Shown here in pieces: positions 2,762 to 60,356 of a stretch of DNA of 64,000 nt. The stretch lies in NCBI GenBank assembly GCA_017615655.1, contig JAFZZS010000002.1:3114-67113 (forward strand), read 5' to 3'. Source of the stretch: Alphaproteobacteria bacterium. GTDB lineage: Bacteria; Pseudomonadota; Alphaproteobacteria; Rs-D84. Both the position numbers and the translations under genes were made by a program. How positions within the stretch are numbered: position 1 is the stretch's first letter; every line of letters begins with the position of its first letter. Under the pieces are notes generated by a model. The model did no database searches. It was not told the origin of the DNA and worked only from the letters and a program-made list of their open reading frames with translations.

Positions 2762-3733
2762 CTAGCGTGCAACATCGCCACGTAATTTTTCATGACATTT
2801 ATAATTTTGTAATTTAAATCCGTTTGCTGCCTCCCATGCCAACATACCACGCCAGTTTTCATCAGGAATTTCAACAGTTGGTAATTGATACGGAATACGT
2901 TTTATTTGTTCTTGCATTTGTGGAATGTGATTTTCGTAAATGTGTGCATCATGCAGTTCGCCTTTTAGTATACCAGGTTTTAAACCAACCTCTTTGGCAT
3001 AGAGCATAAGAAGTAATGCGTATGACGCAATATTGTACGGCACCCCAAGAAACATATCACATGAACGCTGTGTCCAAATTAAATTTAACCTGTCACCATC
3101 AACCAGTAAATTATGCATAATATGGCATGGTGGTAGCGCCATTTTATCCATTTCAACAGGATTCCACGCACTGATAATAATGCGGCGATTCGTAGGATCG
3201 TTTTTTAATGTGTTGATTGCGGATTTTACCTGGTCATATCCAGGATTTTGCGGATCAAAGTTATCCATCGGGTTTTTATCAATACGCTCAGGGTCGAATT
3301 CATATTTTCCACCAAAGTGACGCCATTGAAAACCATAAACAGGTCCCAAGTCACGTTCCATAGACATTGCGCGATTACGAAGAGTTGTTTTTTCTTCTTC
3401 GGTTGGACGACGACCAAAATATTCCGGAAATTCGCGAACACTTGTTTCATAGACAGGTTTCCATTTTGGTGCACTGGACCATTCATCCCAAATTGTACAT
3501 TTGCGATCTTGCAGCCATTTTTTATCGGTGATACCTTTGATAAAAAATTCCAGTTCGGTAGCAATATTTTTAAGCCCCATTTTTTTTGTTGTGATTAATG
3601 GAAAACCCATGTCCATATCATGAACAAAAACCGCACCTGCGGGATTACGTAGTGTTTTTATACCGGTACGATTGTTGGTCAGGTCTGTTTTTGTGTCCAA
3701 AATTTCTTGGCAAATATCTAAGTATGCTTTCAT
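2762..3733 (-). CDS. thyA: Thymidylate synthase ThyA (folate-dependent, long ~324-aa form)
   Basis: Typical ThyA motifs: FHDMDMGFPL, WNP, the active-site region, and the C-terminal PCH/DAHIY region. Start chosen at MKAYLDICQEILD (ATG at 3731-3733) rather than the upstream in-frame Met. Confidence 0.9.
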   Translation of the reverse strand: MKAYLDICQEILDTKTDLTNNRTGIKTLRNPAGAVFVHDMDMGFPLITTKKMGLKNIATELEFFIKGITDKKWLQDRKCTIWDEWSSAPKWKPVYETSVREFPEYFGRRPTEEEKTTLRNRAMSMERDLGPVYGFQWRHFGGKYEFDPERIDKNPMDNFDPQNPGYDQVKSAINTLKNDPTNRRIIISAWNPVEMDKMALPPCHIMHNLLVDGDRLNLIWTQRSCDMFLGVPYNIASYALLLMLYAKEVGLKPGILKGELHDAHIYENHIPQMQEQIKRIPYQLPTVEIPDENWRGMLAWEAANGFKLQNYKCHEKLRGDVAR

Positions 3734-3808
3734 ATTTTTTCCTTTCTTAAATGTTGACAATCTGAATATACAGTGTTTTATTGTGTTATGCAAGGTATAT
3801 TTGTAGGC

Positions 3809-3836
3809 TTGCAAATATGTTAATGGATGTTATAAT
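3809..3836 (+). promoter_or_regulatory. Putative sigma70-type promoter for the HAD hydrolase gene (-35 TTGCAA, 16-nt spacer, -10 TATAAT)
   Basis: TTGCAA at 3809-3814 and TATAAT at 3831-3836, about 28 nt upstream of ATG 3864, in the divergent thyA/HAD intergenic region. Confidence 0.35.
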
Positions 3837-52159: not shown

Positions 52160-52185
52160 TAGGTTATTAAAAAGGAGTGTATAAA

Positions 52186-53376
52186 ATGAAAATGTATTTA
52201 CCAGGATTTGTTTTTGCAACAATGTTGGTTGCATCCATGCCGGCGATTGGTGCAACTGGTTATGGAATGAGTGGCAATTCAAATAATATGAATTATGCAC
52301 AGTATGAAACACGTTCTACAACGCGTACATATTCGAATACTGGAAATTATGGTGCCTATAACAATAGTAATTACGGGACAAGATATTATAATAATCAAGG
52401 TGCTAATCGTAATCAGATGTATCGTGGATACAATGGTGCATCAAGCACGCGTACTGTTACAACGAACAACCGCCAAACCGTACGCAGAAGTATGAAGCGT
52501 AAATACTATTTGGCGCATCCTTTCTTTCAACCAACCGAAGGTAAATTTGGTTCGATAACAGATTTGGCATATAATACCGCATCGTATAATTTTGATATTA
52601 CGCCGGCGTCGGGTGTTACGATGTCTGATACATCTGCAAAGTGGGATATGAAGCAGTATGCTGTCAAAGAAGATTTCAGTTTTGGAATCACTGACAGATT
52701 TGGTTTGTTGTTGATGGGTCGTTATGATACAACAAAATACAAATTTGATTGGTCTACTGCGCCAGATGACAAGATGGATGATCATGGGTTTAATATTTAT
52801 GGTGCTGGTGCACAGTGGCGTTTTGTTGATAATGAGAAATGGATTGGAACGCTATCTGCTTACTATGAGAGACAGCAAGATATTGCTAATGAATTCGTGT
52901 TGGATTTGAAGGCTGGTTATAAAGTTTCAAAATCGACCATATATGGACTGGCACGGGGTTGGTTGGTGAATTTCGATGAAGAAATGTATGGAAACGGCGT
53001 TGTCGGCTCAAATGAAAGTGGGTACACTGAATCTATATTCTTGGAATATGATGGCGATGCCGAAAGAACGTTTTTCTTTGAAGCTGGACTTGGTGTATTT
53101 AGTGTACTGGATGAAGATTGGACATTGAATGTCGAGGCTCTTGTTGGTAATTATGATTGGCATAATCAGGCATCCATCAAGGGGGCGATTGGTTGGCAAC
53201 CAAACGATTGGTTCGCTTTGAACTTGTATGTCAAAACATCATTCTTTGATAGTGCCGATGGTAAGAATTTAGATTTCTATGGCACCGAATCAGGAATATG
53301 GAAATACATGGGTGAAGCAAAATTAGATAAGTACAGAGAAATGTCTGTTGGTGGTCAGATAATATTCTATTTCTAA
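52186..53376 (+). CDS. Outer-membrane beta-barrel protein with N/Y/G/R-rich low-complexity N-terminal region
   Basis: Signal peptide (FVFATMLVASMPAIGA), about 80 aa of N/Y/G-rich sequence, alternating amphipathic strands, C-terminal aromatic ...IIFYF; 397 aa. Confidence 0.6.
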   Translation: MKMYLPGFVFATMLVASMPAIGATGYGMSGNSNNMNYAQYETRSTTRTYSNTGNYGAYNNSNYGTRYYNNQGANRNQMYRGYNGASSTRTVTTNNRQTVRRSMKRKYYLAHPFFQPTEGKFGSITDLAYNTASYNFDITPASGVTMSDTSAKWDMKQYAVKEDFSFGITDRFGLLLMGRYDTTKYKFDWSTAPDDKMDDHGFNIYGAGAQWRFVDNEKWIGTLSAYYERQQDIANEFVLDLKAGYKVSKSTIYGLARGWLVNFDEEMYGNGVVGSNESGYTESIFLEYDGDAERTFFFEAGLGVFSVLDEDWTLNVEALVGNYDWHNQASIKGAIGWQPNDWFALNLYVKTSFFDSADGKNLDFYGTESGIWKYMGEAKLDKYREMSVGGQIIFYF

Positions 53377-54153: not shown

Positions 54154-55440
54154 CTATTCAAACGATTTTTTAGCATGTTCTCGCAGCGAATTCCAATATT
54201 CCAATCTCTTTTTTATGTCACGTTCAAATCCGCGTTCAATTGGATGATAGAAACTTTGACGTTCCATGCTTTCAGGAAAACAATTTTGACCGCTGCATCC
54301 AGATTCTGTTTCAGGGTCATAGATATAATTTTTACCATACCCAAGATTCTTCATCATTTTCGTTGGCGCATTTAAAATATTTTTTGGTGGCATTAAATTG
54401 GATGTTTGTTTTGCAACCGAATACGATGCCATTTGTGCTTTGTAAGCTGAAATACTTTTGGGTGCAGTTCCAAGATATATTACCAACTCGGTCAGTGCAA
54501 TATCACCTTCGGGACTGCCCATACGTTCATAGACCTGCCATGCTGCGAGTGCCAGTTGCATCGCATTTGGATCAGCAAGTCCAATATCTTCCATTGCAAA
54601 TCGTGTCAGACGACGAAAAATATACATTGGATCTTGTCCTGCAGTCATCATTCTGGCAACCCAATATAATGCGGCATCGGTATCGCTGGCTCGTAATGAT
54701 TTATGAACCGCAGAAATAAGATTATAATGTTCATCACCTGATTTGTCAGATAACGGTGCACGCTTTTGAATTACTGAATCTAAATCGTCCGCAGATAAAT
54801 TCTTTCTAAATTTTGCGGATACAAGATATTCTGTGGTATTTAATAAAAATCTTGCATCACCATCGGATATTTCGGCCAAATGTTTTTTTGCGTCTGGGGT
54901 AAGAGGTATTTTCTTTCCAAGATATTTTTCTGCGCGTTCAATAAGTGTCATTAAATCATCCGTATTTAACGGTTCCAAAACACCAATATGACAACGTGAT
55001 AATAATGCATTATTCAAATTGAAACTTGGGTTTTCGGTTGTAGCGCCAATAAAAACCACTGTTCCATCTTCAAGATATGGTAATAATGTATCTTGCTGTG
55101 TTTTATTGAATCTGTGGATTTCATCAATAAAAAGTAGAGTTCCACGTCCAATTGACGTATTTGTACGTGCAATTTCCATCGTTTTCTTTATATCTGCTGT
55201 GCCAGAAAATACGGCGGACATTGGGACAAAATCCATATCAACTGAATTTGCCAATGCACGTGCAATGGTGGTCTTGCCACATCCTGGGGGACCCCATAAT
55301 AACAAATTAGATAATTTTTTATTATCGACCATACGGCGAATAATACCATTTTCACCAAGTAATGCCCGTTGACCAACAATCTCATCGATTGTGTTTGGTC
55401 GCATAATATCCGCCAAAGGGCGCGTTGTTACATTAGACAT
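54154..55440 (-). CDS. rarA: Replication-associated recombination protein A (RarA/MgsA)
   Basis: AAA+ core LLWGPPGCGKTTIARALAN, sensor motifs, C-terminal MgsA domain; 428 aa. Confidence 0.92.
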   Translation of the reverse strand: MSNVTTRPLADIMRPNTIDEIVGQRALLGENGIIRRMVDNKKLSNLLLWGPPGCGKTTIARALANSVDMDFVPMSAVFSGTADIKKTMEIARTNTSIGRGTLLFIDEIHRFNKTQQDTLLPYLEDGTVVFIGATTENPSFNLNNALLSRCHIGVLEPLNTDDLMTLIERAEKYLGKKIPLTPDAKKHLAEISDGDARFLLNTTEYLVSAKFRKNLSADDLDSVIQKRAPLSDKSGDEHYNLISAVHKSLRASDTDAALYWVARMMTAGQDPMYIFRRLTRFAMEDIGLADPNAMQLALAAWQVYERMGSPEGDIALTELVIYLGTAPKSISAYKAQMASYSVAKQTSNLMPPKNILNAPTKMMKNLGYGKNYIYDPETESGCSGQNCFPESMERQSFYHPIERGFERDIKKRLEYWNSLREHAKKSFE

Positions 55441-55539
55441 TTTATTATTAGCCTTGTTTATGGTATAATCATCTTATTAAATAAATAGGACATTGGCAAA
55501 TGTAAAATTTGCCCAGGTTTTGAACCCCAGGAGGCTATT

Positions 55540-57552
55540 ATGCGTGTTTGTATAAATGTTGAAGATAAGCGTTGGAAAAAATATAAAATTGATTTTTCAA
55601 AAATTGTCAATGCGTCAGTTCCTGCTAAATACAAAAATTCTGAGGTTTCAATTACACTTGTTAATGATGATGAAATACGCAAAATAAATAAGAAGTATCG
55701 CAAGATAAATAAACCAACTAATGTCCTGTCGTTTGAGTTATCAGATGATATTTTGTTGGGTGATATATTTATTTCAATTGATACTGTGATGCGCGAATCC
55801 AAACAGGAACATATTTCAGTCGCAGAACATACCGCACATATGGTTGTCCATGGCATATTACATTTATTGGGATATGACCATATGACCGATAAAGATGCGC
55901 AAAAAATGGAAACAAAGGAAATAAATATATTACGTAAGTTGGGTTACAAAAATCCATATATAAACGATGGTGATATCTGTTCAGATAGAATGTGTTGCCC
56001 CGGTGAAAAAACAATAAGTGCGTTTAGACATTTTTTTGAGGGTGCACTTGGTCGAACGATATTATACGTATTGTTTGGTTTAATATCATCATTAGGTTTT
56101 GCGCCATTCTATATGTGGTGGTTTTCTATAATTGGTATTGGGGGGGCATACTTGTTAAGTATAAAAAGTTTACCTGGACATTCGGGAATAGGTAAATTTA
56201 TACGTATCTTTCCATTTGGCGCATTTTATGCAATTGCGATGTTCTGGTGGGTATTGCATAGTATTTATGTTATTCCAGAACTTGCGGCACAATTCGCAAT
56301 ATGGACGATACCAGGGCTTATAGGTATAGGTTTGGTTGGTGGTATTGTGTTTTCCTTTCCATTTATGGCTATTTCATCTGTACGGGCAAATGCGGCGTGT
56401 AGACCATTTTTATTTGCGGCTGTTTGGACCCTTGTGCTGTGGTGTCGTGAATGGATTTTTACTGGGTTTCCATGGAATCCGATCGCTAATATTGTCATTG
56501 GAAATGTATATTTATCCAATTCTATGTCATTGTATGGGGCATTAGGGTTAACATTTGTGATAATTGGTTTGATTGGTGCACTATCGGAAATTATCAGAAA
56601 TTTCCGTAATACGATGAATTGGTTTGCTATGTTTGTTTTTGTGTGTCTGGGTGCACTTGGTATTATTTATGGCGTTAGAAATATAAATGTTTCTGCCCAA
56701 AATCATGGGATTAATTCACCGCTTATTCGTATTATACAACCCGCGCAAAGTGCTGCACAAAAAGCAACACATTCACGTACGGCTGCGCTACAAAATGCAA
56801 ATTATAATATCAATCTGATGGTGTCGTTGGCATCCATAGATGGCGAATATGATTTGGCGGTATTTCCAGAAACAGCATATCCATTTGTTATGACAGATGG
56901 GGATATAATGTCAATTTCGCGTTTGCTATCAAAACCAATAGTTATTGGTTCCAATTATTACAGTGATGGTAATTTGTATAATTCACTGATTGTATCGGAC
57001 GTAGATGGCGTAATTTCTCATGTATACAGTAAGTCACATTTGGTACCGTTTGGCGAATATCGGCCATTTGGAAATATTATACCAACACCAGGACAATTAA
57101 CGCCTGGTAATGGACCAGAACTTATTAAAATGAATATCAAAGGACAAAGATTTGTATTTGCCCCTGCGGTTTGTTATGAAGTAATATTTTCTGATTCGTT
57201 GATACCAAACGGTCAAACACCAGATGCAATTATCAATATAACAAATGATAATTGGTTTGGTAAGACCCCTGGGACGTATCAGCATCTTGATATGGTGCGC
57301 AGATATGCAATTGAATCAGGCTTGCCGATTATTCGGGCAAATTATTCGGGTGTTAGTGCATTTATTGCCGCAGATGGTAATGTTGTTGCGTATATGCCCG
57401 TAAGCCAAACAGGTCAAATAGATGGCTTTGTATGGGGTGCGCACAAGACAATGTATCGTGTAATTGGTCGTGATATGTGGATGATAATCATTTTGATAAT
57501 TTCGTGCTTGGCGGTGATATGGATTTCAGAAGTTTCACGCAATCGTTCCTGA
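55540..57552 (+). CDS. In-frame fusion: endoribonuclease YbeY (N-terminal ~150 aa) plus apolipoprotein N-acyltransferase Lnt (C-terminal ~520 aa)
   Basis: YbeY metal site HGILHLLGYDH at residues ~104-114. The Lnt multi-TM region and CN-hydrolase domain (VFPETAYPF, CYEVIF) follow with no intervening stop. An internal Met that could start Lnt lies at 55990. Confidence 0.7.
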   Translation: MRVCINVEDKRWKKYKIDFSKIVNASVPAKYKNSEVSITLVNDDEIRKINKKYRKINKPTNVLSFELSDDILLGDIFISIDTVMRESKQEHISVAEHTAHMVVHGILHLLGYDHMTDKDAQKMETKEINILRKLGYKNPYINDGDICSDRMCCPGEKTISAFRHFFEGALGRTILYVLFGLISSLGFAPFYMWWFSIIGIGGAYLLSIKSLPGHSGIGKFIRIFPFGAFYAIAMFWWVLHSIYVIPELAAQFAIWTIPGLIGIGLVGGIVFSFPFMAISSVRANAACRPFLFAAVWTLVLWCREWIFTGFPWNPIANIVIGNVYLSNSMSLYGALGLTFVIIGLIGALSEIIRNFRNTMNWFAMFVFVCLGALGIIYGVRNINVSAQNHGINSPLIRIIQPAQSAAQKATHSRTAALQNANYNINLMVSLASIDGEYDLAVFPETAYPFVMTDGDIMSISRLLSKPIVIGSNYYSDGNLYNSLIVSDVDGVISHVYSKSHLVPFGEYRPFGNIIPTPGQLTPGNGPELIKMNIKGQRFVFAPAVCYEVIFSDSLIPNGQTPDAIINITNDNWFGKTPGTYQHLDMVRRYAIESGLPIIRANYSGVSAFIAADGNVVAYMPVSQTGQIDGFVWGAHKTMYRVIGRDMWMIIILIISCLAVIWISEVSRNRS

Positions 57553-57556
57553 AGAT

Positions 57557-57760
57557 TTATTGGTGAAAATAATTTAATATCCATACACGGATTGCAGATG
57601 ACAGATTTGTCTTTAATTTACGTGCCGAATCGATTTCATTAATAATCTTGGCCACAGATGTTGCACGAATTTCTGCGATTTCATGTAATGCGTCTATAAA
57701 TTCTGACTCAAGTGAAATACTGGTTTGATGCCCTGATAAAGAAACAGATATTTTCTTCAT
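57557..57760 (-). CDS. Ribbon-helix-helix (RHH_4 family) protein
   Basis: KISVSLSGHQTSISLESEFIDALHEIAEIRATSVAKIINEIDSAR...NLSSAIRVWIL matches the conserved alphaproteobacterial RHH_4 pattern; 67 aa. Confidence 0.6.
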   Translation of the reverse strand: MKKISVSLSGHQTSISLESEFIDALHEIAEIRATSVAKIINEIDSARKLKTNLSSAIRVWILNYFHQ

Positions 57761-57761
57761 T

Positions 57762-58196
57762 TTATATTTTACCCCCCATCAAACAGTCCAAAATGGCACG
57801 GTATGGATCATCGTATTGACGTAAAATGCTAAGCCCCAAATTATCTAGCATAAAGCAGGTGCCAAAAGAATCAAATGCAAACCAAAACAAATCATTACGA
57901 CCAAAGATTGTTTTGCCACGAATACTCGGGATGTTGGTTAAATCAGAATTTATTTGAAAAATATTTGGAGTTGGGTATTTGGAAGAACTGGCAAATTCTG
58001 TTGGACCAAATATATACCCAGATCCTAATTTCATGCCGCCATATTTTTGGTAAATACTTATCATATACGATGGTAACATAGCAGCCCGAATTTTTTGTAG
58101 GTTCAGGTTTACTAGGTTTATTTGTCCGGGTGTTGCCGCAAGGGCGCATGTGACATTTCGTTCTTTAATTTTTGTTAAGAAATCCTGCTCTGTCAT
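57762..58196 (-). CDS. SUKH-1 (SMI1/KNR4)-like protein, putative immunity-type domain
   Basis: MLPSYMISIYQKYGGMKLGSGYIFG matches the LPxxYxxFLxxxNGG core. LFWFAFDSFGTCFMLD matches the C-terminal IPFAxDGxGxxxCLD motif of SUKH-1. 144 aa; 1-nt gap to the RHH gene. Confidence 0.5.
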   Translation of the reverse strand: MTEQDFLTKIKERNVTCALAATPGQINLVNLNLQKIRAAMLPSYMISIYQKYGGMKLGSGYIFGPTEFASSSKYPTPNIFQINSDLTNIPSIRGKTIFGRNDLFWFAFDSFGTCFMLDNLGLSILRQYDDPYRAILDCLMGGKI

Positions 58197-58208
58197 ATTT
58201 GTGCCTTT

Positions 58209-58712
58209 TTATTGGCGGCGATTTGATGCGATATTTGCCGCCATTTGACTAAGTCTGTCCGCGACAGCATTACCACCGTTGCCTGCAAGTGTTGAATGTA
58301 TAGGTAAGTATATTTTTTTCTTGGGATTTGGTAACCATATTGTTTCATTCCCAGATTGTTCGATTATGAATCTATCAAGGTTTTGTGATAACGGAAAAGT
58401 GTAGCACATAAACAAATTATCAAGATTTAATTGTCCGCCCCATATCAGCGGTACACGAAATCGTATTGATAGATTATCCGGAATATTTTGCCCTGTTAAT
58501 AACGCCATAAATTCATCGCGATTAAGGTTCATTAATGCCAGTTCTTGGACACAGTCAGATAGCGACTTCATAAAAGTATGACAAAGTTCTTTGTATTGTT
58601 GAAACCAATCTGGTGATACTCGAACATTATGAGGATTTATGGGCATGACCGGCATGTCCGGCATTTTCAGGTCTTTTAGGCGATTTTCAGCGTTTGCTTG
58701 TGTCCATTGCAT
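58209..58712 (-). CDS. Hypothetical protein (167 aa) in toxin-position upstream of SUKH-like gene
   Basis: No recognisable motifs. 12-nt gap to the downstream gene and 1-nt overlap with the upstream gene. Confidence 0.45.
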   Translation of the reverse strand: MQWTQANAENRLKDLKMPDMPVMPINPHNVRVSPDWFQQYKELCHTFMKSLSDCVQELALMNLNRDEFMALLTGQNIPDNLSIRFRVPLIWGGQLNLDNLFMCYTFPLSQNLDRFIIEQSGNETIWLPNPKKKIYLPIHSTLAGNGGNAVADRLSQMAANIASNRRQ

Positions 58713-59626
58713 TAATTTTTACCTATGTAATTAGTAACAGTGCTTATGTACGTAGATATAGCATCAAATAATTCTTTGTCAAAGTCTTTTGGTTGTGTGT
58801 TTTGATTTTCTGACATAAACTTCTTGAATTGTTGTAAATCACTAAATGTAGATATAAGTTCATGTCTAGTTGTACCAGTTGGTGCAATTAAACAGCCACG
58901 TAAATGAATGTCGTCTGCACTATCCCCAAGGGTTTCTTCAAAAAGAGTTACAAGGGTTTGAAATGCATCGACTACATCGGTTACACTTGCACTTGATGCC
59001 CCAATCCACAGTGTCTGATCATAACCAAGCGCAACGATTGGATTGTTCAACTTTCCAATGTGTTTACATGGTTTCATTATATATCCTGCAGATTCAAATA
59101 TTCGGTTCATTTCCATTGCAAATGGACTGTGATTATTATTTGATTTTGTTGGTGCCATCCCAGTAGGTTGTGCAGAAAGTGATGGTTGGGTATTTAATTG
59201 TTGTGTTGGTGGTGAAAATCTTTTCTGTTTAGTTGCAACCCGATTTAGCGCAGGTGATAATGGACGGGCTTGGGCAGATGGGGGGGGCCCATAGCTACTT
59301 AATACAGTCGGCTGTGTTGTAGCAGGCTGTTGTGGTTCAATAACCTGAGGCTGAGGTTTTGGCTGAACAAGAAATGGAATTTTACGAAAACGCGGTCTGA
59401 CAATCAGGTAGAGCCCGGTCAGTGCCAATATAATAGCAACTACAAGTGAAACATAGAATTCTGGTTTTATATTTGTACGCGTGGCTTGAAGTTCTGAAAG
59501 ATATTCCCAATGTGCCGCGGAAAATATATCAAATCCATACCGCATATTCATCCAAAAGGTTGCTGCAAGCGCAACCGTCATCAACCACAATATACCAAGT
59601 AAAATTTTATCGAAATTTCTTTTCAT
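58712..59626 (-). CDS. Hypothetical bitopic membrane protein: 2 TM helices, Pro/Gln-rich linker, C-terminal ~130-aa Cys-containing globular domain
   Basis: TM segments ILLGILWLMTVALAATFWM and FYVSLVVAIILALTGLYLIV. Linker QPKPQPQVIEPQQPATTQPTVL...PPPSAQARPLSP...QPSLSAQPTGMAP. 304 aa, first gene of the cassette. Confidence 0.5.
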   Translation of the reverse strand: MKRNFDKILLGILWLMTVALAATFWMNMRYGFDIFSAAHWEYLSELQATRTNIKPEFYVSLVVAIILALTGLYLIVRPRFRKIPFLVQPKPQPQVIEPQQPATTQPTVLSSYGPPPSAQARPLSPALNRVATKQKRFSPPTQQLNTQPSLSAQPTGMAPTKSNNNHSPFAMEMNRIFESAGYIMKPCKHIGKLNNPIVALGYDQTLWIGASSASVTDVVDAFQTLVTLFEETLGDSADDIHLRGCLIAPTGTTRHELISTFSDLQQFKKFMSENQNTQPKDFDKELFDAISTYISTVTNYIGKN

Positions 59627-59669
59627 TTTACTTAAATTATATCACATTTATGATAAAGTAGAAAGTGTT

Positions 59670-60356
59670 ATGATAAAAACAGATGCCATTTTTGATGTGA
59701 TAGATGAATTTTCGTGCATATGGGTTCCGACTAGTGTCGAAGCCCCCGATCTTGCAAAAATATCAAACATTGTTATTGTGCAGAATAAAGAATTTTTGTC
59801 ATTACCAATTGGGGCAATAGGTCGGGTATGGCCGTGGCTGGAACATAGTAAAGTAAAATTATTAACACGTCTGGAATTTGATTTTAAAAATGATACTACA
59901 CCAGATATGGCGATGTCTGAATTAGCAACGAAGACAACAGAAGCTTTTAGACATGGGGCGTCAGGGGCGCAAATTTTTGTTCACATTAATAATATTCCAG
60001 AATTTGTAAAAATGATTTTACCGTTGCGGGACGATTTGTTTTTTGAACGGTATCTTTCTGTGGCGATAAATATTGATGAAATTAAAAACGGTAATGTAAA
60101 AGACGTCTTGGAATTGCTTGCAAAAATCAAACCCGATTCTGTTTTAGTAATTGCAGATGGCGATTCGTTTGACCCGAAGTCTGATTTTGTAGGGCGAATT
60201 TTCGGTATGCTTGAAAATTGGGGATGGGACTTTGCATTACATATTATGTTCGGTGGCAATATGATGCGTGTAAGTCAGGTTTTACGTCTTGTACAAAGAA
60301 TGCAACCTAAATTAATATCTGATTTGCGGGTCTTTATCATTCCACCCCAAGAATAA
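59670..60356 (+). CDS. Hypothetical protein (228 aa), divergent from the 4-gene cassette
   Basis: ORF with reasonable codon usage and no recognisable family. 20-nt convergent overlap with the trmB 3' end. Confidence 0.4.
   Translation: MIKTDAIFDVIDEFSCIWVPTSVEAPDLAKISNIVIVQNKEFLSLPIGAIGRVWPWLEHSKVKLLTRLEFDFKNDTTPDMAMSELATKTTEAFRHGASGAQIFVHINNIPEFVKMILPLRDDLFFERYLSVAINIDEIKNGNVKDVLELLAKIKPDSVLVIADGDSFDPKSDFVGRIFGMLENWGWDFALHIMFGGNMMRVSQVLRLVQRMQPKLISDLRVFIIPPQE

Follow-up and report, generated by a model that had tools for sequence, protein, structure and literature searches.

A ybeY–lnt gene fusion in genome-reduced Alphaproteobacteria of the Rs-D84 lineage

Introduction

How an enzyme of RNA processing and an enzyme of lipoprotein maturation come to be encoded in one reading frame is the question raised by the ybeY–lnt locus described here. 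The locus lies in a stretch of 64,000 nucleotides (hereafter the window) from an alphaproteobacterium of the GTDB lineage Rs-D84 (assembly GCA_017615655.1, contig JAFZZS010000002.1, positions 3,114 to 67,113 of the forward strand), in which the endoribonuclease YbeY and the apolipoprotein N-acyltransferase Lnt share a single open reading frame (ORF). The initial annotation of this ORF left three explanations side by side: a genuine bifunctional protein, a lost stop codon with translational reinitiation at Met-151, and a sequencing error. The analysis presented below argues that the gene probably encodes a single bifunctional membrane protein, in which an active YbeY would be held by Lnt at its cytoplasmic face, and that genome reduction, acting on neighbours in an operon, most likely produced the fusion as a by-product that is tolerated.

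YbeY is among the most conserved bacterial proteins, and its precise mode of action is still debated. In Escherichia coli K-12 the genes stand in the order miaB–ybeZ–ybeY–ybeX–lnt, as checked in NC_000913.3, which confirms the ybeZ–ybeY–ybeX–lnt neighbourhood stated in the initial annotation; ybeZYX-lnt has been described as an operon in this organism (bioRxiv 10.1101/2023.03.20.533420). Genomes of the uncultured alphaproteobacterial order Rs-D84, which includes Enterousia, are generally smaller than 1 Mb (PMC12306168).

One reading frame for two complete proteins

The gene and its two main parts are the following:
55540..57552, + strand: fused ybeY–lnt ORF, 670 amino acids (aa), ATG start, TAA stop at 57550-57552; from the ORF list, with three Pfam domains and two NCBIfam equivalogs in one frame
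55540..55962, + strand: complete YbeY endoribonuclease domain, aa 1-141, with the conserved C-terminal end LGYKNPY; from Pfam, NCBIfam, the E. coli alignment, Foldseek and the ratio of nonsynonymous to synonymous substitution rates (dN/dS)
56056..57549, + strand: apolipoprotein N-acyltransferase, aa 173-670, with transmembrane (TM) helices 1-7 at about aa 169-387, a periplasmic nitrilase-like domain at about aa 396-640 and TM8 at aa 644-669

The reading frame contains no stop codon other than the terminal one, whereas the two alternative frames hold 44 and 51 over the same stretch, and the chance of finding 670 open codons at the base composition of the window is about 1.7e-21. Pfam recognises YbeY at aa 14-134 (E 1.4e-36), LNT_N at aa 180-342 and CN_hydrolase at aa 436-618. 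In alignments to the solved structures, with which tblastn agrees, residues 19-153 of the 155 of E. coli YbeY correspond to aa 14-143, and residues 2-464 of E. coli Lnt to aa 161-621. Only about 17 residues (aa 144-160) fall outside both alignments. Both parent proteins are thus complete, with a short junction between them. An identical protein (P0001) is present in public assemblies. The placing of YbeY and Lnt in one in-frame ORF of 670 aa, as initially annotated, is thus borne out by the ORF itself, by Pfam and by NCBIfam.

Conservation of the fusion and purifying selection

A search of 5.8 billion proteins was assessed for its best 120 clusters (90% identity), all of which are about 670 aa long, carry all three Pfam domains and share 55-100% identity with the fused protein. 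In a scan of one genome per GTDB species, 121 genomes encode a relative, and 80 loci (L001-L080) were retrieved; these come from metagenome-assembled genomes (MAGs) of rumen, hindgut and human gut, many of them named Candidatus Enterousia. The fused ORF is uninterrupted in 80/80 loci, with a stop-to-stop length of 654-722 aa, except for L027, which runs off its contig. Pooled over 99 closely related pairs by the Nei–Gojobori method, dN/dS is 0.11 for YbeY, 0.24 for the junction (aa 142-172) and 0.15 for Lnt; YbeY, the junction in this frame and Lnt are all under purifying selection.

More distant relatives were sought exhaustively over 1.84 billion cluster representatives, which brought up fused proteins at 32-53% identity (P0121-P0124, P0126, P0129, P0135, P0140). 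They belong to MAGs labelled Rickettsiales or Alphaproteobacteria, where apolipoprotein N-acyltransferase is their only annotation, and the best 120 matches to one of them, P0135, are all fused. Divergence to about 32% identity marks the fusion as ancient, and over 100 species have it in fixed form.

These data bear directly on the reading of the fusion as an artefact of this assembly, produced by a sequencing or assembly error or by a recent pseudogenising mutation. Nothing speaks for it beyond the fact that MAG assemblies contain errors in general, whereas the same architecture recurs in 80/80 independently assembled species genomes from different hosts and laboratories, in the best 120/120 protein clusters and, more widely, in hundreds of clusters, with selection acting on all three segments. 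No stop codon or frameshift splits ybeY from lnt in any of the 80 orthologous loci, a comparison that had been proposed at the outset. The error hypothesis of the initial annotation is excluded by these loci and was rejected; the probability left to an artefact of any kind is practically negligible.

The YbeY part

Within the YbeY domain the catalytic signature is the following:
55849..55881, + strand: zinc-binding motif H104-x3-H108-x5-H114 (HGILHLLGYDH), aa 104-114, of the form H-x3-H-x5-H, coordinates verified

The domain scores 125.6 bits against PF02130 (cut-off 25), covering profile positions 6-129 of 129, and 131.4 bits against the YbeY equivalog TIGR00043 (cut-off 45); its identity to E. 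coli YbeY is 40% over 149 aa. In the AlphaFold2 model it forms a compact alpha/beta domain with a predicted local distance difference test score (pLDDT) of about 75-89, and Foldseek matches it to YbeY structures in the PDB (1xm5, TM-score 0.80-0.81; 1oz9, 0.84; 7y7o, 0.77). The HGILHLLGYDH motif reported in the initial annotation is present at aa 104-114, and the histidine motif was found in 80/80 retrieved loci; H104, H108 and H114, together with R54, are invariant in a 77-sequence alignment (A1). To judge from these features, the N-terminal domain would retain YbeY RNase activity.

It could be argued, conversely, that the module is no longer an RNase and has been co-opted as a cytoplasmic accessory of Lnt with a metal-binding, regulatory or scaffolding role, so that rRNA maturation would fall to another enzyme or to a second ybeY. 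Such a second copy might be located elsewhere in the genome, and ybeZ, which is the usual partner gene, is missing from the window as well as from each of the 90 loci examined. Loss of the catalytic role is, however, hard to reconcile with the strongest constraint in the whole protein, since the YbeY domain has the lowest dN/dS (0.11) and 59 of its 141 positions are at least 95% conserved, or with an invariant histidine triad and R54 and a score far above the equivalog cut-off. Furthermore, the window holds a single ybeY-like sequence, and genomes of about 0.9 Mb rarely keep redundant copies. Co-option of this kind is therefore considered highly improbable.

One other place in the window had been suspected of holding a second ybeY-like operon. 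At 37.6-42.4 kb on the minus strand, an ORF of 164 aa is flanked by ORFs of 300-350 aa; Pfam assigns this region to LptF/G, an XerC/D-type integrase, a DnaJ-domain protein, a thioredoxin-reductase-like protein and SerRS, and the candidate was rejected.

The Lnt part and its topology

The active site of the second enzyme is encoded as follows:
56869..57174, + strand: codons of the Lnt catalytic triad, E444 at 56869-56871, K498 at 57031-57033 and C545 at 57172-57174

The Lnt part scores 210.3 bits against the Lnt equivalog TIGR00546 (cut-off 132.9), of which it covers profile positions 1-394 of 395, as well as 59.7 bits against PF20154 (cut-off 27.1) and 70.2 bits against PF00795 (cut-off 23.2), and it is 25% identical to E. 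coli Lnt over 491 aa. For the E. coli enzyme, E267, K335, C387, E343, Y388 and E389 are listed as essential residues (PMC3850990). Their counterparts here, E444/K498/C545 for the triad E267/K335/C387 and E506/Y546/E547 for E343/Y388/E389, are all present and invariant in the same 77 sequences. Judging by this conservation, the Lnt part would N-acylate diacylglyceryl-apolipoproteins.

The AlphaFold2 model of the whole protein has a mean pLDDT of 83.2 and a predicted template modelling score of 0.72. It places TM helices at aa 169-184, 193-210, 216-242, 246-270, 285-306, 329-353, 358-387 and 644-669, with an alpha/beta domain (aa 396-640) between helix 7 and the last TM helix, and Foldseek aligns it to the Lnt structures 5n6m, 5n6h and 5vrh in the PDB at TM-scores of 0.77-0.81. 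Lysine and arginine are confined to the short loops predicted to be cytoplasmic. The model thus suggests an eight-helix topology with a periplasmic nitrilase-like domain and a cytoplasmic N-terminus. It is established from Lnt structures that the N-terminus of the E. coli protein is cytoplasmic, and so this topology is compatible with an N-terminal YbeY in the cytoplasm tethered to TM1. The complete Lnt with eight TM helices and a CN-hydrolase domain, as claimed initially, is likewise found in TIGR00546, Pfam and the model.

The junction and the question of an internal start

Two features of the region between the enzymes are needed here:
55963..56055, + strand: junction, aa 142-172, flexible at aa 142-155, followed by a juxtamembrane helix at aa 156-167 that is the counterpart of the N-terminal cytoplasmic stub of Lnt
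55990..55992, + strand: codon of Met-151, earlier proposed as an internal start; not conserved, and with no Shine–Dalgarno core upstream in the window

A single ORF may nonetheless give rise to a normal Lnt and, separately, to a YbeY that is free in the cytoplasm, through proteolytic cleavage of the junction or through internal or coupled initiation close to where Lnt begins, in which case the localisation of either enzyme would be unaffected. The junction offers some ground for this, as it is both the least confidently modelled part of the protein (pLDDT 48 for aa 141-150 and 63 for aa 151-160, the helix beginning at aa 156) and the least conserved one, with a mean top-residue frequency of 0.51 and no column reaching 95% in an alignment of 81 species. 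Initiation without a Shine–Dalgarno sequence is also possible in principle, the motif being often absent at true starts in this clade, where a core of at least 4 nt precedes only 27 of the 81 annotated starts.

Against two separate products stands the lack of any conserved start codon between the end of YbeY and TM1. The codon of Met-151 lies at 55990-55992, as initially reported, and position 151 is Met in 2% of the 81 species and mostly Ser; in the best column of the region, ATG, GTG or TTG occurs in 18/81 loci, and an in-frame start with a Shine–Dalgarno core was found in 3/81 loci only. Of these two points against internal initiation, the absence of a conserved start codon is the stronger, and the absence of Shine–Dalgarno cores the lesser. 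In addition, the junction stays in frame in 80/80 species under purifying selection (dN/dS 0.24), which would be needless if only the flanking enzymes mattered, and no recognisable protease site is known in it. Reinitiation at Met-151 after a lost stop codon, the second of the initial explanations, was rejected on these grounds, and the wider proposal of two proteins from one ORF is considered unlikely. Conservation and selection thus favour the genuine bifunctional protein among the three initial alternatives, which would probably persist as an uncleaved chain in the cell.

A cysteine cluster at the fusion point

The point of fusion, ahead of the juxtamembrane helix and TM1, is marked by a short motif that the initial annotation does not mention:
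55978..56004, + strand: cysteine cluster C147-x4-C152-C153-P154-G155 (CSDRMCCPG), exactly at the fusion point; from the 81-species alignment

Set within this variable junction, the cluster is retained across the 81 species, with C147 at 94%, C152 at 93%, C153 at 91%, P154 at 83% and G155 at 90%. The strict C-x4-C-C-P-G motif occurs in 155 of 204 fused proteins and cysteine-rich variants in most of the others. The linker cysteines are expanded to 8 and 9 in L050 and L055, respectively (the junction of L050, for example, reads CQCGCGNKCNCKNCSCCSCPG), and the junctions of L064, L065 and L076 are likewise rich in cysteine; the distant fused lineages have short junctions devoid of it. AlphaFold2 gives the cluster no confident structure.

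Ideas for the role of the cluster include the binding of a metal or iron–sulfur (Fe-S) centre, a Cys-Pro heme-regulatory motif, a dimerisation hook, and a metalloproteinase-like cysteine switch acting on the zinc of YbeY. From these it could be proposed that the fusion is a regulated coupling, in which the cluster exerts metal-, redox- or heme-responsive control over the tethered YbeY RNase; for example, the cysteines may ligate the catalytic zinc as in the cysteine switch of metalloproteinases, or may bring about a zinc- or Fe-S-dependent dimerisation. This proposal is quite unlikely. If true, it would couple the maturation and the quality control of 30S ribosomes to the state of the envelope or of metals in minimal gut bacteria, and the long-noted but unexplained synteny between ybeY and genes for membrane and cation functions (ybeX/corC and lnt) would acquire a mechanistic meaning for the first time.

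Genomic context and origin of the fusion

The immediate surroundings of the fused gene are the following:
54154..55440, - strand: rarA/mgsA (AAA+ ATPase), divergent upstream neighbour; Pfam MgsA_C, AAA_assoc_2 and AAA
55461-55469, + strand: TGgTATAAT, extended -10-like, within the divergent intergenic region of 99 bp between rarA and the fused gene; consensus resemblance only
55529..55534, + strand: AGGAGG, Shine–Dalgarno-like, 5 nt 5' of the ATG of the fused gene; read directly from the sequence, consensus resemblance only
57557..57760, - strand: RHH_4 protein of 67 aa, convergent downstream neighbour; Pfam PF13467, E 1.1e-21

A scan for promoters and terminators gave scores no better than those of shuffled sequence. 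Since the place directly upstream is occupied by rarA/mgsA, neither ybeZ nor miaB is found there, and since the downstream RHH_4 gene is convergent, the fused gene forms a single-gene unit. The arrangement of rarA, the fused gene and RHH_4 recurs in 74-78 of 80 Enterousia loci, with rarA and the RHH_4 gene each syntenic in 78, and the RHH_4 gene is syntenic also in the distant locus L086. The absence of ybeZ and ybeX noted initially is supported by Pfam scans and by tblastn: neither these genes nor miaB were detected by Pfam at the locus or in the 64-kb window (every ORF of at least 250 aa and most of at least 120 aa), tblastn of the E. coli YbeZ, YbeX and MiaB proteins against the window gave no match, and E. 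coli YbeZ and YbeX matched nothing in any of the 90 loci examined.

Traces of the ancestral order are seen in distant relatives. In the distant fused loci L085, L086 and L087, miaB lies immediately upstream of the fused gene and overlaps it by 4-10 nt, and L086 also shares the downstream gene block of the window. Because miaB abuts the fused gene in these relatives, the fusion can be read as the remnant of a miaB–ybeZ–ybeY–ybeX–lnt cluster after the loss of ybeZ and ybeX. No intermediate in which ybeY stands, still unfused, immediately 5' of lnt was found among the closest unfused relatives (P0133, P0136, P0139). Upstream of unfused lnt there is no Pfam match in L081 and L082, and the contexts in L089 and L090 are unrelated.

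Type II CRISPR-Cas loci are situated within about 1-2 kb of the closest unfused lnt genes, which come from Rickettsiales-labelled MAGs (L081, 5195-9080; L082, 5106-8991; L090, 2623-6763). The CRISPR-Cas loci encode a Cas9 of 990-1083 aa and Cas1, and in L081 and L082 also Cas2.

Other features of the window

Downstream of the RHH_4 gene, elsewhere in the flanks and at the far end of the window, the following genes were recorded:
57762-58196, - strand: 144 aa, downstream block
58209-58712, - strand: 167 aa, downstream block
58712-59626, - strand: 304 aa, downstream block
59670-60356, + strand: 228 aa, downstream block
52177-53376, + strand: ORF of 399 aa
53427-54152, + strand: ORF of 241 aa, adjacent to the preceding one
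2762-3814, - strand: thymidylate synthase, 350 aa, matching over aa 29-349 a Pfam profile of 266 positions

The block at 57557-60356 is syntenic beside ybeY–lnt in 75-78 of 80 Enterousia loci, as it is in L086, there at 22-54% identity. Apart from RHH_4 in the gene of 67 aa, Pfam and NCBIfam matched nothing in the block; the middle region of the 304-aa protein is rich in Pro and Gln. The ORFs of 399 and 241 aa, which are conserved in 62-64 of 80 loci and have no Pfam or NCBIfam match, show signal-like N-termini, Asn/Tyr/Gly-rich regions and C-terminal endings in F (IIFYF and VNILF), features typical of outer-membrane beta-barrel proteins, to which they are putatively assigned. As its match is longer than the profile, the thymidylate synthase would have an insertion of about 55 aa and/or be extended at its N-terminus relative to the usual enzyme. 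Between 50000 and 54000, over FtsK and the putative outer-membrane-protein genes, GC skew takes strongly positive values (0.20-0.40), and it drops to about 0 over the minus-strand rarA, a pattern that probably reflects strand-specific gene composition.

Discussion

The model proposed for the bifunctional protein starts from an ancestral miaB–ybeZ(phoH)–ybeY–ybeX(corC)–lnt cluster, from which ybeZ and ybeX would have been lost in genome-reduced Alphaproteobacteria (Rs-D84, Candidatus Enterousia and allied MAGs). The ybeY stop codon would then have been lost, so that YbeY reads straight into Lnt, and the rearrangement upstream of the gene would have come later, in Enterousia. In the resulting protein, a zinc-dependent RNase domain would sit in the cytoplasm on a linker of about 17-30 aa to TM1, while the Lnt body of eight helices, with its nitrilase domain in the periplasm, would N-acylate apolipoproteins as usual. 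Maturation of the 16S rRNA 3' end and 30S quality control by YbeY would thus take place at the membrane surface, with a YbeY:Lnt stoichiometry of 1:1 and with a YbeZ partner that is not encoded nearby. Translation as one chain, escape from proteolytic separation, enzymatic activity and the membrane localisation of YbeY are what we infer for it. Genome streamlining alone is sufficient to explain the fusion of neighbours, and an adaptive coupling of YbeY and Lnt is possible.

Several points weigh against this model. The single chain of 76 kDa is a prediction from sequence, and post-translational cleavage is possible in a linker modelled with low confidence (pLDDT below 65). The missing internal Shine–Dalgarno core is weak evidence against internal initiation, because such cores are scarce even at annotated starts. 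The window holds only one ybeY-like sequence, and a second, free-standing ybeY is possible elsewhere in these genomes, beyond the 64 kb searched. Finally, in a neighbour-joining tree of the Lnt parts, which is crude (BLOSUM distances, without support values), most fused proteins group together, but five unfused Lnt proteins, whose genes have no ybeY in front of them, nest among them and the fused P0140 is placed elsewhere. Because unfused lnt genes nest inside the fused clade, the fusion is neither irreversible nor obligatory, and because P0140 groups apart, its single origin is not certain; later fission or loss of the fusion, and perhaps a second independent fusion, are possible.

If the fused YbeY is indeed tethered, this essential enzyme can do its job from a fixed position at the membrane and without a neighbouring YbeZ, a point that any model of the mode and site of the final steps in 30S maturation would have to accommodate. 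The fusion also bears on why ybeY adjoins corC and lnt across Proteobacteria, the fusion of neighbours being a classic hint of functional linkage. There is a practical consequence as well. Every named database record of these proteins (P0001, P0005, P0017, P0126, P0135, P0140 and others) reads only 'apolipoprotein N-acyltransferase', and hundreds of proteins are concerned. Because the fused protein is labelled only as Lnt, annotation based on names or on the single best hit would score YbeY as missing in Enterousia and Rs-D84, and since YbeY is a near-universal marker, this could distort completeness estimates and reconstructed metabolism for these bacteria, which are abundant in rumen and gut.

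Comparison with known systems

The closest point of reference is the ybeZ–ybeY–ybeX–lnt cluster of E. coli, where the two enzymes are encoded in the same order and orientation. There, however, the four genes are separate and YbeY is a soluble protein of 155 aa, whereas here ybeZ and ybeX are gone, and the two remaining genes form one ORF with a novel junction that contains cysteines.

Fusions of YbeY itself are known, YbeY–Era, with YbeY at the N-terminus, being the most frequent fusion of Era (PMC10582724). As in YbeY–Era, YbeY here forms the N-terminal part of a larger polypeptide, joined to the product of a frequent genomic neighbour. The functional logic of YbeY–Era is obvious, since YbeY physically interacts with Era, a soluble factor of 30S assembly. 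Lnt, in contrast, is an integral membrane enzyme of lipoprotein maturation. We know of no link between Lnt and ribosomes. Nucleases that are anchored to the membrane include RNase Y, through an N-terminal TM helix, and RNase E, through an amphipathic membrane-targeting helix. YbeY–Lnt resembles them in concept, as an RNA-processing nuclease placed at the cytoplasmic face of the membrane, but the folds are unrelated, and the anchors of RNase Y and RNase E are dedicated short segments and not a complete second enzyme.

Fusions of Lnt are known as well. In Ppm1 (Rv2051c) of Mycobacterium tuberculosis, an Lnt domain is fused to a polyprenol-monophosphomannose synthase, and the corresponding genes are adjacent and separate in relatives such as M. 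smegmatis (PMC3850990). Ppm1 sets a precedent for a functional Lnt with a second, cytoplasm-facing enzyme in one polypeptide, as proposed for YbeY–Lnt; the two differ in that the additional domain of Ppm1 is C-terminal and acts in envelope biogenesis, whereas that of YbeY–Lnt is N-terminal and an RNA-processing enzyme. A full-text search of the literature, with the main YbeY review (Liao et al. 2021, Biochem Soc Trans) outside its reach, found no description of a YbeY–Lnt fusion. Set beside these systems, YbeY–Lnt is a new domain architecture for two well-known enzymes and not a new kind of system.

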